Below, piece by piece: positions 6,951 to 30,243 of a stretch of DNA of 34,992 bases. The position numbers and the translations under genes were made by a program. How positions within the stretch are numbered: the first letter of the stretch is position 1; every line of letters begins with the position of its first letter. The stretch is from a virus. Taxonomy: Duplodnaviria; Heunggongvirae; Uroviricota; Caudoviricetes. Location of the stretch: the IMG/VR virus record IMGVR_UViG_2663763256_000001. The stretch is one strand, 5' to 3'. The notes beneath the pieces are model-generated. The model ran no database searches and was not told the DNA's origin. It saw only the letters and a program-made list of their open reading frames with translations.

Positions 6951-8909
6951 TTACGCCGTACATTTCACCAGACCGCGGTGATCAACTGGCGCGACACCGG
7001 CGTCAATACGCACTTTCGTTGTCACGCCATCCACACTGAAGCCCTCCATCTGATCAATATATGGCGTATCCACACCGTTGAGATAAGCCACTTCAATCGT
7101 ATCGGAGCCTTTTGACGCAGCCAGGTAGAAGGTGGTCTGGCTGTTATCATCAAGACGAGGCTCTGCAATAACGGTCGCAAAATCTTTCACCGGGTTAATA
7201 ATACCGGCGTTAATGTCAGCCCCCTTGACACTTGAGGAGCGAATGACCTGGTTAGCAACAGACTCCATCGCCGTCGGTACCAGTACGAACGCAGGACGAA
7301 TATTCAGATGACGCTCCCCCTCTTTCTGAACGCGCATCAACTGGCGGGCTTTATCCAGCGATGCCACGTCCATTGCAGCGCTCTCCAGTACGTTTGCATG
7401 TTTCGCTTTATCGAACAGACTTACATTATCTGTGGAGATTTTCGGGTTAGACGTCAGAATGGCATAAACCAGATCGGCAATAGTGGATTTCGCCGCACGG
7501 CCCAGCTTCATCGGGACATCGGTCAGCATATTCAGATCATCATTGATAATGGCCTGACGGGTGATACTGAACAGCTCGCCATAGGTCGCCAGTGCAATAG
7601 TGGCCTGTTTATCTCCGGTGGTGACGTATTTATATTCCGCCCCTTCACGCACCTGACGCAGAGCACTGAAGCCCCCCATACCCACACGATGGGCAATTTT
7701 AAAATCAGACAACTGACCTTTCCGCGTCCACTGTTCATAGGTTTCAGGGGCATCTTCCCAGCCCTGCAGAATGGCTTTGTTCGCAACATCCAGCAGAATA
7801 TTACCGAAGTCAGACGTACTGTGTGTGAACGCCGCACCGACCATCTGCATCGGGTTATAACTGGAAACCCCAATACCCCGTTCAGTCAGTGACATACGGG
7901 CATATTCACGCAGGGTCATCCCGTTGTAGACATTATCACGTTCGGTTTTTTCAAATCCGGCACGCGCCATCAGCGCCTGGCGGATCCCGTCCCCCACAAA
8001 ATTACCGTTACCGGCATAAATATGAGCCGGTGTATTTTTATTGGATGGCGTGGACTCGCGCCCCATCTCGTTCAACAGCTTTTCGCGGGCCTGCTCCAGC
8101 GAACATTCAGGATCGGCAAGACACTGAGCCTGCAGCGTCTGATAACGCCCGCCAAACATGGCAAACAGATCATTAATACCGTTTACACGCGCTTTTTGCT
8201 CTGCCAGTACCTGCGCACGGATACTGTTTTCATCCACCACGGGTGCTGCTGCCTGCACTGGCGTCCGGGAGGCTGCAGGTTCATCATCCTGTACGCGTGG
8301 AGCACTGTTGCGTGGCGGAGTAATCATGTTTCGAATGGATTCCGGCATCTTTTTAAATTCCTCTGTACGTTTTGACTGAATACATGCCATTGCCTTAACG
8401 GCTGGCGTCACCTGATCAGCAAATCCATGTGCCAGACATTCGGCACCGGACATCCAGGTCTCATCCGCCAGCATGGCAGCAATTTCATCGGTGGTTTTCC
8501 CGGTTTTCTGTGCATAAGCGGGTAACAGAACCGCCTCAACCTTATCGAGCAGGTCGGCATAGGTGCGCATGTCCTCCGCATCACCGCCCGTAAAGCCAAA
8601 TGGTTTATGAATCATCATGAAGGTGTTTTCCGGCATAATGACCGGGTTTCCCACCATCGCAATGACCGACGCCATTGACGCCGCCACACCGTCGACATAA
8701 ACGGTAATGGACGCACCATGTGTTTTCAGTGCATTAAAAATGGCGATGCCTTCAAAGACATCGCCACCCGGTGAATTGATATGGAGATTAATGTGGGTGA
8801 TATCGCCCAGTGCATTCAGATCACTGATAAACTGCTTCGCTGTAACACCCCAGAAACCAATCTCGTCATAAATATAAATATCCGCGTCACTCTGGTGACC
8901 AGCCTGCAT
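6951..8909 (-). CDS. prohead protease (ClpP/S49-like) fused to HK97-fold major capsid protein
   Basis: N-terminal part has ClpP-like motifs (INSPGGDVFEGIAIFNALK; MASVIAMVG). C-terminal ~300 aa resembles Phage_capsid family proteins. Start moved to the ATG at 8909 (MQAGHQSDADIYIYD), downstream of the portal stop; the track ORF runs to 9170. Confidence 0.75.
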   Translation of the reverse strand: MQAGHQSDADIYIYDEIGFWGVTAKQFISDLNALGDITHINLHINSPGGDVFEGIAIFNALKTHGASITVYVDGVAASMASVIAMVGNPVIMPENTFMMIHKPFGFTGGDAEDMRTYADLLDKVEAVLLPAYAQKTGKTTDEIAAMLADETWMSGAECLAHGFADQVTPAVKAMACIQSKRTEEFKKMPESIRNMITPPRNSAPRVQDDEPAASRTPVQAAAPVVDENSIRAQVLAEQKARVNGINDLFAMFGGRYQTLQAQCLADPECSLEQAREKLLNEMGRESTPSNKNTPAHIYAGNGNFVGDGIRQALMARAGFEKTERDNVYNGMTLREYARMSLTERGIGVSSYNPMQMVGAAFTHSTSDFGNILLDVANKAILQGWEDAPETYEQWTRKGQLSDFKIAHRVGMGGFSALRQVREGAEYKYVTTGDKQATIALATYGELFSITRQAIINDDLNMLTDVPMKLGRAAKSTIADLVYAILTSNPKISTDNVSLFDKAKHANVLESAAMDVASLDKARQLMRVQKEGERHLNIRPAFVLVPTAMESVANQVIRSSSVKGADINAGIINPVKDFATVIAEPRLDDNSQTTFYLAASKGSDTIEVAYLNGVDTPYIDQMEGFSVDGVTTKVRIDAGVAPVDHRGLVKCTA

Positions 8910-14914: not shown

Positions 14915-15185
14915 AATGTTACCGTAATATGTGAGTATCCATCGACTAGACACTAAGCAAAAAAGCTCCCGAAGGAGCCTTCATTTTCACTTTCTTAAAT
15001 CTAACGACAGACGGCTAACATTTAAGTATTGTGAAATATTATCAAATGTAATCATCATTGATTTACAAAAGATACATTTTGCCCCGAAAGGATTCCTGTC
15101 AGAAACATCAAAAGATGATGTTCTATACTGAGAACCATGGCAACACGGGCATCTAAAGTGAATATGGTTTGTAATATTTTCTACC

Positions 15186-15398
15186 TCAAAGTGCCACAAC
15201 ATGAACAGCCGCGGGGCCTTTAGGTCCGTTCTCAATACCAAATTCGACTTCCTGATTCTCAGTTAACGTTTTGAAATCGTTGCTCTGAATAGCTGAGAAA
15301 TGGACAAACACATCTTTGCTACCATCTTTCGGCGTGATGAAACCAAAACCTTTTTCAGGGTTAAACCATTTCACTAAACCAGTCATTTTGTTAGACAT
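15186..15398 (-). CDS. cspI: cold-shock protein, CspA family (CspI-like)
   Basis: [38 protein letters not shown] carries the cold-shock domain RNP motifs. AAGG Shine-Dalgarno; long AT-rich 5' region upstream, typical of csp genes. Confidence 0.85.
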
Positions 15399-15761
15399 CA
15401 TTATTACCTTTTGAAGAAGTTAGCCCTTGGGCAGAATGGTCCGAAAAAAAATATCAGAGAGAAAAACCAACAAGGAAATCTCAAGAGGTACAAATAATAA
15501 AATTATAACAATGACTGCTTCAGATAATTTTGTAACAAACCAGAACACCATTAACGCATGATTAACCAACCATAGCAAGGATTACTTTTGTAAAGAAAAA
15601 CACACGAATGAAACAATAGCTTTATTTATTAATAAAACGTGTCATTCTGTCTAATGACCTTTTATCTTACCCTTAAGATTTCAAGGATTTTGACTCATGG
15701 AAGAGTCCTTTTTATTTAAATTTCACATTCAGCGCTAAAAATAATCCGATTTAATATTAAT

Positions 15762-16789
<1,028 letters not shown>

Positions 16790-16916: not shown

Positions 16917-17213
16917 ATGAACGGTATAGATCCATTCAAACCAATCAGTAAGCAACTTGATGTGGTATTACCACAACTGACAAAACACAACGACCTTCTG
17001 GATAAAGTGTTGCCTTTTTATATTGCTGTTACCGCAAAATTATCAGGTAAAACTCGAGAAGAGGTTCTCAAATATAACATGCTGGCTTTAGAAACAATTT
17101 TTGGCTCAGAAAAAGCGGGAAAATCACCCAAAGAGCTGGCAGAATCTCAATTTGCTTATATGACAAATATAAGAGTATCCGAAATCTTTGATAAGCTACC
17201 AGACATTGAATAA
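16917..17213 (+). CDS. hypothetical protein encoded antisense to the lysis cassette
   Basis: 98-aa ORF with AGGGA Shine-Dalgarno about 9 nt upstream and its own intrinsic terminator immediately downstream. No recognizable domain. Confidence 0.55.
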   Translation: MNGIDPFKPISKQLDVVLPQLTKHNDLLDKVLPFYIAVTAKLSGKTREEVLKYNMLALETIFGSEKAGKSPKELAESQFAYMTNIRVSEIFDKLPDIE

Positions 17214-17460: not shown

Positions 17461-17676
17461 TTACTCTCCCCGTGCAGCCTTACGACGGTCCTCTCTGATT
17501 TTGAAATACAGGTTAGTCAGATATGTCAGCAGCCCAAACAGCAGACTCCCCAGCACGCCTATTGCCGCCCACTGAGACGGGGAAACCCTGTCCAGCAACT
17601 GCAGGAACCAGTAGCCCGTTCCCACCGCTGACGTGGTGTATGACACACCTGTTGTGATTTTTTCCATCTGGTCCAT
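17461..17676 (-). CDS. holin, phage 21 S-type pinholin
   Basis: C-terminal part ([50 protein letters not shown]) matches recalled S21 almost exactly. Dual-start motif MDQM. GGGAGA RBS. The track ORF extends upstream to 17781. Confidence 0.85.
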
Positions 17677-17983: not shown

Positions 17984-18172
17984 TCACTCCGGCTCAGTTG
18001 CACCACTGACCACCACATCACCTTCTGCTGCAATCGCCTGCATCAGGGTATAAGGGGTTATGGCCACCGGACTACCAAACGGCTGCCAGCCCTCTTTCAG
18101 TTTATGTGTCAGCTTTTCCGCAAGATCTGACGGCGGCGCCGCCCTGACAACAGCATAGTATTTAAATGCCAT
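17984..18172 (-). CDS. DUF1737-like small protein
   Basis: MAFKYYAVVRAAPPSDLAEKLTHKLKEGWQPFGSPVAI, a small conserved prophage protein usually found between Q and the holin. Confidence 0.6.
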   Translation of the reverse strand: MAFKYYAVVRAAPPSDLAEKLTHKLKEGWQPFGSPVAITPYTLMQAIAAEGDVVVSGATEPE

Positions 18173-18432
18173 GGTTCTTTCCACCATCTGGAAAATAATT
18201 CTTTAAAATACCAGACATGTAACACAGAAAAAACACAAAACCATACCTTAAATAGAAACCTGATCATCAAGCAGATATGCATGGATAAACTACAAGACGA
18301 GATATAAACCACCCTGCATTTAAATAAACAATAAACAACATCAGAAAAATAATTCTGCTCTATGGTTTATATTCAAAAATATCATTTATACTTTTCAGAA
18401 CATCACCAGCAAGGCATAAACAAGGAAACTAA

Positions 18433-18768
18433 ATGAAGTGGATTGTGATTGATACAGTTATCCAGCCATCATGCGGAATATCTTTTTCAGTCATATGGAG
18501 TAAAGTAAAATTAATAATCTGGTATCAATCGGATGCTTTCTTACCTCCTGAAAGTATATTTACACTGACTCACACAGGTATCATGCTCAATAACAAAGTG
18601 CTACCTGTAACCATTTACAACGTAGTACCATTCAATAAAACATTCTGGAATTTAATCAAAAACAGCCAGGAATGCCCTACAAATACAGATAACGTATTGA
18701 ATGAATGCTTTAATAACCGTTGCACTCTGCAAATATGTCCTTATGGACTAAAACAACAAAGTCCATAA
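18433..18768 (+). CDS. hypothetical AT-rich moron protein
   Basis: 111-aa ORF on the opposite strand to the late operon. AAGGAA Shine-Dalgarno 5 nt before the ATG. Cys-containing C-terminal half. No recognizable domain. Confidence 0.5.
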
Positions 18769-18789
18769 GGAGTTTACTCACATCTGACA

Positions 18790-18824
18790 AAATCAATATA
18801 AACAGCCCCTCCGGAGAGGGGCTG
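18790..18824 (-). terminator. strong intrinsic terminator
   Basis: Perfect 9-bp stem CAGCCCCTC-(CGGA)-GAGGGGCTG. T-rich tract (TTTATATTGATTTT) follows on the - strand. Confidence 0.6.
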
Positions 18825-19215
18825 GAGAGTGGCGCTATGTGCCATTGCATGGTGCCGGGTGCCTCCCGGTGAATTCAGTACCAGCACCTGAATCCGCGAT
18901 TATCCCATATACCTACTCGCTGATTGCCCCTCCGCACAGGGGGATTCACCATGCCAGTTTCTTTTAACAAACCCCCCGCAAACCAGACAACAGTCAACCG
19001 CCTGAATTGTGAAGTATTTAAAAATTTCTCCCGCTAACTGATACCCGGCTAACAGTCTGGTGTTTTCTTTTTCAGCAACGGGAAAGCAACAACCACCACA
19101 CTCGCCACCAGCACACCGTCAGCCAGCACTGACATTATCCGGCTGCTGCAATGCCATTCACAAAAACAGTAAGCAATCACTTTTTACCGTAACAGGTGAT
19201 AATCCAGATATGTAT

Positions 19216-19569
19216 CTACCCCAGATGAGTAATCCGAAGTTCATCCATACCACAGGTCCTGGCTATTCTGTTGTACTCCTGAACAAGAGCAAATAATTCT
19301 GAATTAGCAACCATGAACTCATCGCAAACTCTCTGTATAGCATCACTATTCAGAATAATAACGTCTCTTCCCGAAAGACGATCAGGAGTACAGAACAAAA
19401 CTGTCAAACGGCTGAAGGCCTTTGCTCGTGCTGCATTGACTATATCAATACGCTGCCTAAGGATGAAACACCCCGACGCCTCATCAATATTCACTCTACC
19501 CACACCATATGAATGATAAATATTTAATGCTGAAAAAACCATTAGACCGTATAACAAACACTCAATCAA
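19216..19569 (-). CDS. doubtful hypothetical ORF in the post-tRNA moron slot
   Basis: 117-aa track ORF starting at a TTG codon, with no convincing RBS. Overlapping + strand ORFs are equally unconvincing. Confidence 0.25.
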   Translation of the reverse strand: MIECLLYGLMVFSALNIYHSYGVGRVNIDEASGCFILRQRIDIVNAARAKAFSRLTVLFCTPDRLSGRDVIILNSDAIQRVCDEFMVANSELFALVQEYNRIARTCGMDELRITHLG

Positions 19570-19679
19570 TACTTAACAGAACTTTTATTTTTGACAAACA
19601 TATAATATTTTCAACAATATCCTGAGCCAGGTATATTCCAGTATAAGGCTCTGCCGGAAGGAATCTGGAAGAATGAATA

Positions 19680-19756
19680 TGGCGCGCTGTACTGGATTCG
19701 AACCAGTGACCGATTGCTTAGAAGGCAATTGCTCTGTCCGGCTGAGCTAACAACGC
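19680..19756 (-). tRNA. tRNA-Arg (anticodon UCU)
   Basis: The - strand reads GCGTTGT-TA-GCTC..GAGC-A-ATTGC-CTTCTAA-GCAAT-..-ACTGG-TTCGAAT-CCAGT-ACAGCGC-G-CCA. Cloverleaf with 7-bp acceptor stem, GTTCGAATC T-loop and encoded CCA. Confidence 0.85.
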
Positions 19757-19860: not shown

Positions 19861-19936
19861 TGGTGGCCCTTGCTGGATTTGAACCAGCGACCTGGCGATT
19901 ATGAGTCGCTCGCTCTCACCACTGAGCTAAAGGACC
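19861..19936 (-). tRNA. tRNA with CAU anticodon (Ile2-lysidine type or Met; ileZ-like position)
   Basis: The - strand reads GGTCCTT-TA-GCTCAGTGGTGAGAGC-G-AGCGA-CTCATAA-TCGCC-AGGTC-GCTGG-TTCAAAT-CCAGC-AAGGGCC-A-CCA. Good cloverleaf. Confidence 0.8.
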
Positions 19937-19971: not shown

Positions 19972-19999
19972 CAATAAAAAACCCGCTCGGTGGCGGGTT
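19972..19999 (-). terminator. tR'-like intrinsic terminator downstream of the Q gene
   Basis: On the - strand: AACCCGC-CACCGA-GCGGGT followed by TTTTTATT, about 80 nt downstream of the Q stop. Confidence 0.65.
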
Positions 20000-20079: not shown

Positions 20080-20901
20080 CTATCGCGTTACCCTCTTTAA
20101 CTGCCGCTCCGCCCATGCCTCTTCAATGTCAAACCGAACCACCAACGTATCGTAAAAGCGTTTCACTGATTTTTTCCACGTATCAAGCGTGATAGCACTC
20201 GTCACTTTGCATATGGCATTAAATGCCTCCGTTGATGGCAGCCTTTCACAGCCACGACCACCACAACGCTGGCAATCTCTGATAACAGGCATACCACGTT
20301 TTACCGACTCTTCACGATGAATGGCGACACCACGCCCACGGCAATCCTTACAGGCGGTGGAAACCTCACCCTTTCCGCCACACTCCGGACAGGCAACTTT
20401 TACCACCTCCCTGACTTTTTTCCATTCTTCCCAGTAAGACGGATACACACCTTTCGTACACTTTGCCCATACCGGCGGCTTACCATCCGGATACTGGACC
20501 TTGTTTGTAAAAACTACGCTTTCAATAAATTTTTCCCCATAGCAACAAGGGCACTGCTTTTTACTCGCTGCGCTGCGGGCATAATCCTCAAAAGCGTACG
20601 AAGCCATAATGCGCATCACTAACGGTTTTATTTCTGCCGGAAGTTTTCTCAACGCCGCCACACGATCGCACCGACTGAGTGCATAATCTGCCAGTAATTC
20701 TGTTGCCCGCGCCCTGTCATTCATACTGATGCCCATCTTCCCCAGGAACGCAGAAAACCCCATCTCAGCCCGATTCTGTGTCATGCCCTGCGCGGCCATC
20801 ACATCAGTGATACTCAGCGCATCTTTTGACGTTGAGGCCGATGCATCGGTCAGGCAAGGGGATTTTGGGGAGTAGTATTTCGGTAAATCTTCCAGTTTCA
20901 T
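20080..20901 (-). CDS. late antiterminator Q (phage 82/QuuQ-type)
   Basis: 273 aa with paired CxxC zinc-binding motifs (CPCCYG; CPECGG; CKDCRG; CQRCGG). Directly upstream of the pR'/tR' and tRNA block, downstream of rusA. Confidence 0.7.
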   Translation of the reverse strand: MKLEDLPKYYSPKSPCLTDASASTSKDALSITDVMAAQGMTQNRAEMGFSAFLGKMGISMNDRARATELLADYALSRCDRVAALRKLPAEIKPLVMRIMASYAFEDYARSAASKKQCPCCYGEKFIESVVFTNKVQYPDGKPPVWAKCTKGVYPSYWEEWKKVREVVKVACPECGGKGEVSTACKDCRGRGVAIHREESVKRGMPVIRDCQRCGGRGCERLPSTEAFNAICKVTSAITLDTWKKSVKRFYDTLVVRFDIEEAWAERQLKRVTR

Positions 20902-23072: not shown

Positions 23073-23228
23073 TTACTCCTCAGGTTCGTAGACTGTGAAG
23101 ACAGCGACCTCCGTCTGGCCGGTTCGGATTCGTACCTCGCAGAGGTCTTTCCTCGTTACCAGTGCCGTCACTATGACGGTTAAACAGATGACGATCAGGG
23201 CGATTAACATCGCCTTTTGCTGCTTCAT
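23073..23228 (-). CDS. hokD: Hok-family type I toxin
   Basis: Hand translation gives MKQQKAMLIALIVICLTVIVTALVTRKDLCEVRIRTGQTEVAVFTVYEPEE (51 aa), an almost exact match to recalled Hok/HokD. AAGGAGAAG RBS. Below the 60-aa cutoff of the ORF track. Confidence 0.85.
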   Translation of the reverse strand: MKQQKAMLIALIVICLTVIVTALVTRKDLCEVRIRTGQTEVAVFTVYEPEE

Positions 23229-23485
23229 AGCCTGCTTCTCCTTGACCTTTCGGTCCGTAAGAGGCTAATCTCTATGTGTCGCATAGATATGGCCTCAGAT
23301 TAATGTTAAACGTCTTGCAGGACGCGTAATGTTACCTGGGGCTTTTCTCTATCTGCCGTTGGTGTTCATGCCCGAGGCAGATAGCCTCAAGCACCCGCAG
23401 TCATTCTACTTAACTAAGATTTCCCCGCAAACCGTTTTTGTCCAGCACAATAAATATCCAACTAAACCAATGGAGTTCGCTGTAT

Positions 23486-30185: not shown

Positions 30186-30243
30186 TTTCTGGTGACGTTT
30201 GGCGGTATCAGTTTTACTCCGTGACTGCTCTGCCGCCCTTTTT
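30186..30243 (+). ncRNA. dicF: DicF small RNA
   Basis: TTTCTGGTGACGTTTGGCGGTATCAGTTTTACTCCGTGACTGCTCTGCCGCCC followed by TTTTT matches the recalled 53-nt DicF sequence. Lies between the ydfC and dicB homologs, as in Qin. Confidence 0.75.

Follow-up and report, generated by a model that had tools for sequence, protein, structure and literature searches.

The question raised by this locus is what is encoded by the short open reading frame (ORF) that runs against the late genes of a lambdoid prophage, between the antiterminator gene Q and the holin gene, and whether this gene serves the lysogen. The window (the whole 34,992-nucleotide stretch of viral DNA that we analysed, IMG/VR record IMGVR_UViG_2663763256_000001) had been read once before, by sight. 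This first-pass annotation had pointed to a 111-aa ORF with an AAGGAA ribosome-binding site, encoded opposite to the late operon in markedly AT-rich DNA and carrying cysteines in its C-terminal half. All these features were recovered. The ORF and its Shine-Dalgarno sequence are present on the + strand (Table 1), and Q, the tRNAs, the DUF1737 gene, the holin gene and the lysozyme gene all lie on the - strand. The GC content is 34.5% in the coding sequence and 32.4% in the block 18188-18802, versus 50-51% in the neighbouring genes and 48.9% in the window. The protein has four cysteines in its C-terminal part, C81, C92, C97 and C102, plus C14.

Table 1. Features of the Q-holin region and of the genes next to it, in window coordinates
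Feature	Position	Strand	Basis or remark
Phage lysozyme gene	16256-16789	-	
P21-type holin gene	17461-17676	-	E 3.7e-32
DUF1737 late gene	17984-18187	-	
Divergent AT-rich intergenic DNA, DUF1737 gene (-) to iraL (+)	18188-18432	.	Holds the iraL promoter; 29.8% GC
Inferred -35, TTTATA	18366-18371	+	Placed from the mapped start; 15-nt spacer to the -10
Inferred -10, TATACT	18387-18392	+	7 nt 5' of the start; identical in CFT073
iraL 5' UTR, predicted start A18400	18400-18432	+	By homology to the CFT073 5'RACE end
Shine-Dalgarno sequence, AAGGAA	18422-18427	+	5 nt 5' of the ATG
iraL coding sequence (predicted), 111 aa and stop codon	18433-18768	+	ATG at 18433, stop at 18766-18768
PmrD-like beta-barrel core (predicted), residues 1-78	18433-18666	+	Match to 8TWD chain A; RssB-binding part in the IraM structure
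Cys4 motif, C81-P82 ... C92 ... C97 ... C102-P103	18673-18741	+	Residues 81-103 of IraL
STnc100-family prophage sRNA gene (predicted), convergent with iraL	18794-18983	-	Rfam RF02076
GC-rich hairpin and U-tract, STnc100 intrinsic terminator (predicted)	18803-18824	-	Terminator scan; Rfam terminal stem
tRNA-Arg(UCU)	19680-19756	-	Follows the Met(CAT)/Ile tRNA
tRNA, Met(CAT) by ARAGORN, tRNA-Ile in RefSeq	19861-19936	-	
tR'-like hairpin and T-run, AACCCGCCACCGAGCGGGTT TTTTATTG	19980-19999	-	About 80 nt 3' of Q
Q-type antiterminator gene	20080-20901	-	Pfam Antiterm, E 1.6e-51

Comparison with databases points to iraL, a prophage-borne gene whose product belongs to the RssB anti-adaptors of the IraM/IraL/RssC family, and we put the probability of this reading at roughly 0.93. 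The predicted protein is identical to IraL of E. coli CFT073 at 110 of 111 residues; the sole change, V25I, adjoins the contact residue K26. The coding sequences are 99.4% identical at the nucleotide level. Identity to K-12 IraM (b1160) is 59.5%, without gaps over 107 aa. In the NCBIfam collection the protein scores 161.4 bits against the IraM model NF007393, whose curated cutoff is 121, and its residues 1-110 cover positions 1-113 of the 114 in the model. The sole significant match among PDB sequences is chain A of 8TWD, which is IraM 1-78 in complex with RssB (E 8.4e-32). When positions 18200-18900 were compared by megablast with complete E. coli genomes, four records were 100% identical, and on identical DNA RefSeq carries the label "anti-adapter protein IraM". 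The Pfam results are at odds: with the supplied Pfam-A copy, hmmscan assigned no family to the ORF, to K-12 IraM or to the Stx2c-phage paralogue at thresholds up to E 10, unlike the precomputed labels of the protein database, which give PF11183 for all the IraM/IraL relatives. Given this discrepancy, the family assignment rests on NCBIfam and the PDB. Thus the statement of the first-pass annotation that the ORF resembles nothing recognisable did not hold, and the database search that it had proposed as a check found IraL/IraM relatives (NF007393, 8TWD, CFT073).

In the literature, a gene counts as iraL if its whole coding sequence is at least 95% identical to that of CFT073 iraL at the nucleotide level, and promoter regions are at least 96% identical across iraL-positive strains (PMC4045071). 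Besides the 99.4% identity of its coding sequence, the window gene shares about 97% of the 245 bp upstream with CFT073 (7 substitutions). CFT073 iraL (formerly ycgW; Hryckowian et al. 2014, mBio, PMC4045071) has the same 111-aa length, leader and Shine-Dalgarno sequence as the window gene. It also lies on the opposite strand between Q and holin of a lambdoid prophage, the potB prophage, which differs in having an IS200 and three tRNAs 3' of Q, whereas the window prophage has two tRNAs and no IS200. The gene is therefore already known: iraL was described in 2014 (PMC4045071), and RefSeq annotates the exact sequence as IraM. As the identification of a characterised prophage-borne gene, this finding is ordinary and adds no new knowledge.

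We then consider what the protein would do. IraL is the fourth RssB anti-adaptor and raises RpoS in growing uropathogenic E. coli (Hryckowian 2014, PMC4045071). Two-hybrid, co-purification and half-life assays have shown that the CFT073 protein binds RssB and increases the RpoS half-life, and that it binds only the N-terminal domain (NTD) of RssB (PMC4045071). In the crystal structure of the relative, IraM 1-78 is a PmrD-like beta-barrel that docks against three parts of RssB: the alpha4-beta5-alpha5 face of its receiver domain, the linker and the C-terminal domain (CTD) (Brugger et al. 2023, PMC10844676). This docking blocks sigma-S binding (PMC10844676). A structural model of the window protein (AF2, 16 homologues) has seven strands and a helix (69-76) within residues 1-76. 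Confidence in the model is moderate, with a mean pLDDT of 59, values of 64-81 in the core and values below 50 in the tail, residues 76-111. Its best Foldseek match was 8TWD_A (E 4.8e-7), followed by the PmrD entries 2JSO and 4HN7. PmrD is induced by PhoP and protects phospho-PmrA (4HN7, 2JSO); it is the same small beta-barrel and also binds the receiver domain of a response regulator. However, it is only about 14% identical to the window protein, lacks the cysteine-rich tail and targets PmrA instead of RssB, and by sequence it does not belong to the family.

The residues that contact RssB are largely kept. Fifteen were named for IraM (PMC10844676); 11 are identical in the window protein, and the other four are conservative substitutions. 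Cluster I (I4, I6, W22, K26, I42), the set in contact with the RssB NTD, is kept at 5/5 positions, cluster II is identical at 3/5 and cluster III at 2/4, and Pro66 is kept. The four changes, T13S, L75I, H63N and I64V, all fall in clusters II and III, at the contacts with the RssB CTD or linker. This pattern is consistent with an IraL that binds the RssB NTD only. For growing lysogens one can thus propose a pathway that, for the window allele, would be carried over from CFT073 in its expression, RssB binding and RpoS effect. iraL would be transcribed from its own sigma-70-type promoter, as shown for the gene in CFT073, and the product would bind RssB, the ClpXP adaptor, at its N-terminal receiver domain, as CFT073 IraL does. 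By homology to the IraM-RssB structure, the beta-barrel core 1-78 would dock on the alpha4-beta5-alpha5 face, the sigma-S site. The blocked RssB would not deliver sigma-S (RpoS) to ClpXP, and RpoS would be stabilised in logarithmic growth, as with CFT073 IraL. iraL is a clear case of a prophage moron rewiring a core host stress pathway.

The CFT073 gene has its own sigma-70-like -10/-35 promoter, with a 5'RACE start obtained from log-phase lysogen cells (PMC4045071). The mRNA end found there, ACATCACCAGCAAGGCATAAACAAGGAAACCA, matches the window at 31 of 32 bases (18400-18431), and this match places the predicted start of the window transcript. The promoter and leader differ from those of CFT073 at three positions: C to T in the -35, G to A at -1 and C to T at +31. 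Our consensus promoter scan missed this promoter because its spacer is 15 nt. By homology to the mapped start, the promoter is predicted to be active in the lysogen, which is one of the marks of a moron.

The RssB contacts and the upstream DNA bear on another reading, in which the window protein behaves like K-12 IraM, that is, it is induced by PhoP upon Mg2+ starvation or acid and contacts both RssB domains, instead of being constitutive in log phase. The two proteins do belong to the same family and have the same fold, and they share the RssB-NTD contact cluster and the four tail cysteines. A direct repeat resembling a PhoP box, TGTTTATTGTTTATTTA, lies at 18321-18337 (-), 63-79 bp 5' of the transcript start, and the Stx2c-phage paralogue has a similar repeat in the corresponding position. 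However, this site was rejected as a PhoP box: there is one site with one mismatch, but 43 of 100 shuffled sequences gave at least one, so it does not rise above chance. The same search found no such match in the K-12 iraM locus, which is PhoP-dependent. The protein is 99% identical to IraL versus 59.5% to IraM, the upstream DNA is of the IraL type with no meaningful alignment to the iraM promoter, and the substitutions fall on residues that contact the CTD and linker. We therefore consider IraM-like behaviour improbable and retain the IraL reading. K-12 IraM also differs in being four residues shorter and in its promoter and regulation (PhoP, Mg2+ starvation), and it contacts both RssB domains. 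Its gene lies outside any intact prophage, beside e14, and has no adjacent STnc100 match in the 10 kb scanned. In the K-12 locus we observed that iraM sits just outside the e14 end and adjoins ycgX. This neighbour encodes a DUF1398 protein, as does ydfO in the Qin and CFT073 prophages, which suggests that K-12 iraM is also the leftover of an older lambdoid prophage. Two other E. coli anti-adaptors, IraD and IraP, have the same function, inhibition of RssB with stabilisation of RpoS, but they are unrelated to IraL in sequence and engage RssB differently (PMC4045071, PMC10844676).

The surroundings of the gene show how it is carried. The tRNA pair 3' of Q is the usual rare-codon pair, and its first member is probably an Ile2 tRNA with a lysidine modification, comparable to ileZ in Stx phages. 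The hairpin between Q and this tRNA probably plays the part of tR' for the late promoter. The CFT073 potB prophage and phage vB_EcoS-640R1 have the same arrangement as the window, namely Q, tRNAs, DUF3927, STnc100, iraL (on the opposite strand), DUF1737, holin. In strain KKa014 the order is Q, tRNAs, DUF3927, iraL (opposite strand), DUF1737, holin, lysozyme, as in the window, CFT073 and 640R1. In the Qin prophage of K-12, the Q-holin slot holds cspB, cspF, ynfS and ynfU instead of iraL. The iraL coding sequence was found in 1446 of 5426 complete E. coli genomes, in nearly all at 95% identity or more, and the longer query of 701 bp, with the flanks, had matches in 2771 genomes versus 1446 for the coding sequence alone. 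Since the Qin slot differs and the flanks match more genomes than the coding sequence does, iraL can be regarded as a swappable moron. Base composition (32% GC versus 50% in the flanks) and presence or absence in related prophages both agree with this. These observations support the view of iraL as horizontally acquired, independently transcribed, lysogen-expressed cargo of the lambdoid Q-holin slot; judged from its anatomy, it would have inserted against the direction of the late operon, within AT-rich DNA. The first-pass annotation had suggested such a lysogen-expressed moron, and the conserved CFT073 promoter and 5'RACE start, together with the different cargo in relatives, speak for it. 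The comparison across related prophages that it had recommended came out in the same direction, as iraL is kept in CFT073 and 640R1 and replaced by other cargo in Qin. A factor-independent terminator of its own, a further mark of a moron, is lacking: the terminator scan of 18100-19100 found no intrinsic terminator on the + strand after iraL.

A strong hairpin does lie just past the ORF, as had been noted at first sight, and this part of the earlier description stands; its assignment to iraL does not. The hairpin has 9 bp, seven of them GC pairs, and begins 34 nt past the iraL stop. The terminator scan called it on the - strand only (CAGCCCCTCTCCGGAGGGGCTG then TTTATATTGA). The T-run beside the hairpin, TTTATATTGATTTT, is on the - strand, and the + strand has GAGAGTGG after the stem. 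In the alignment to the Rfam model of STnc100, the hairpin corresponds to the terminal stem. Because of the U-tract on the - strand and this terminal stem, we assign it to STnc100 and not to iraL. A bidirectional terminator cannot be claimed from the sequence, since the + strand lacks a canonical one.

The STnc100 gene is predicted by the covariance model RF02076, which matched the - strand from 18983 to 18794 over positions 1-206 of its 206 with 131.7 bits against a gathering score of 47. Its 3' end is 25 nt from the iraL stop codon. STnc100 is a known prophage sRNA family and is found just 3' of stx2B in Stx2 phages (PMC12370729, PMC12711010, and a 2026 Storz-lab preprint). STnc100 was the only RNA family found in 18100-19700 when Rfam was searched permissively, with E up to 1. 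We sought a promoter for the sRNA by eye and by aligning four copies; a conserved TCACAATTC lies upstream, with no convincing -35/-10 pair. The convergent pairing of an ira gene with STnc100 recurs in CFT073, in phage 2851 and in phage 640R1, which has two STnc100 copies. In the lysogen, the STnc100 terminator would shield iraL from - strand transcription that arrives from the side of Q and the tRNAs, and the tR'-like terminator (19999-19980) just past Q would help to keep this transcription out of iraL. After induction, polymerase modified by Q would read through the STnc100 terminator and cross iraL antisense. The convergent pair may couple late transcription of the prophage to iraL expression by antisense interference.

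The same arrangement could also mean that the phage, and not the host, is the main beneficiary, with the protein tuning ClpXP/RpoS so as to bias lysogen maintenance or induction, either by occupying RssB or through its Cys-rich tail, and with STnc100 as part of the same module. In four independent lambdoid or Stx phages, an ira gene and an adjacent STnc100 gene point towards each other, and Ira paralogues occur on phage records, at least some of them of isolated phages, including Stx2 phages that carry them next to stx2. However, the known phenotype is stabilisation of host RpoS (PMC4045071), and the 10-kb K-12 locus scanned has no STnc100 match beside iraM. We judge a role mainly for the phage to be, if anything, even less probable than IraM-like behaviour, and prefer that of an anti-adaptor acting on the host.

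It could also be argued that iraL is intact but effectively silent, sitting with a weakened -35 in AT-rich DNA prone to H-NS binding, in a decaying prophage remnant that contributes nothing to RpoS control. The -35 is TTTATA both in the window and in strain KKa014, and the TTTACA of CFT073 is closer to the consensus; this allele difference could change promoter strength and iraL expression. The 15-nt spacer is poor, the region has 30-35% GC, and in identical sequence RefSeq calls the neighbouring late genes DUF1737 and DUF1327 pseudogenes. On the other hand, the ORF, the Shine-Dalgarno sequence, the -10 and the context of the transcript start are all intact. The 701-bp query with its TTTATA variant has exact (100% identical) copies in at least four further complete genomes, and the published conservation of promoter regions across iraL-positive strains also speaks against silence. 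Moreover, purifying selection acts on the family: dN/dS between iraL and its paralogues is about 0.10-0.17, with dS saturated. A silent gene therefore appears very improbable, and an expressed iraL remains our reading. We rejected a chance ORF or a mis-stranded gene on the grounds of this dN/dS, of the published experiments and of the probability of an open frame of 111 codons, about 2e-4 per start at the local base composition.

Three points go beyond the papers searched, although none is a major surprise: the place of iraL in a defined, swappable lambdoid slot, antisense to the late operon and convergent with STnc100; the conservation of the Cys4 tail; and a Stx2c/Stx2a-phage paralogue beside stx2B. 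The tail was dropped from the IraM crystal construct and described as less conserved and flexible (PMC10844676). Across 17 Escherichia sequences, C81, P82, C92, C97, C102 and P103 do not vary. When 1.84 billion cluster representatives were searched with a profile, 93 matched, and we aligned 43 of these that are near full length and less than 50% identical to each other. C81 and C97 are present in all 43 representatives, and C92 and C102 in 42. The spacing C-x10-C-x5-C-x4-C is found in 37 of the 43, and the Escherichia group has x10, x4, x4. The lowest-entropy columns of the family are the four cysteines, the two prolines and W72, while identity over the remaining tail positions is only 17%. 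Named members come from Salmonella, Citrobacter, Enterobacter, Kosakonia, Intestinirhabdus and Dryocola, and a Salmonella-phage fragment keeps the Cys4 motif at 35% identity.

This motif is a signature found here, outside the published definition of the family, and in the IraM/IraL papers checked we found no discussion of the tail cysteines. The most conserved feature of the family is missing from the crystal structure. The structural model, with its low pLDDT for residues 76-111, is uninformative on whether the four cysteines cluster. Judging by the conservation pattern, we tentatively suggest that the tail, rather than being a flexible appendix that the protein can do without, might be a module that binds metal (Zn or Fe-S) or senses redox state and so controls how stable or active IraL/IraM-type anti-adaptors are, although we regard this as doubtful. 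If it is true, the Cys4 tail would give RpoS stabilisation a post-translational input that has so far been missed.

Finally, we looked at phage genomes with tblastn. iraL itself is present in four E. coli phage records; two of them are about 18 kb, and 640R1 is deposited as a partial genome. A paralogue that is about 71-73% identical occurs in 41 records, almost all of them Stx2c- or Stx2a-converting phages or fragments of such phages, and it is mostly unannotated there. It has 107 aa and is 65% identical to IraM. In phage 2851 (FM180578.1, 24233-24562) it lies directly 3' of stx2cB, on the opposite strand and convergent with STnc100. The Stx2c/Stx2a-phage paralogue resembles the window iraL in its Cys4 tail, its opposite-strand place in the late region and its convergent STnc100, but unlike the window gene it adjoins stx2B. 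We found no study of this paralogue in the literature searched. Its place beside stx2B could mean that, in EHEC, toxin phages are connected with the control of RpoS.

Several smaller features of the window were also recorded. Inside the lysis cassette there is a second ORF on the opposite strand (98 aa, 16917-17213, +, 36-39% GC), flanked by the lysozyme gene and a truncated DUF1327/ydfR gene. It matches phrog_25324, of unknown function (E 7e-61), and had no Pfam match on scan; it may be another moron. A 117-aa ORF at 19216-19569 (-) matches phrog_2873 (E 3.7e-70) and is unannotated in the RefSeq record that is identical over 701 bases, where by coordinate offset it would lie at 7017-7370. Other Rfam matches in the window are a cspA-type thermoregulator leader before cspI (15140-15556, -), the Sok antitoxin RNA of hok/sok (23226-23396, -) and DicF (30187-30238, +).
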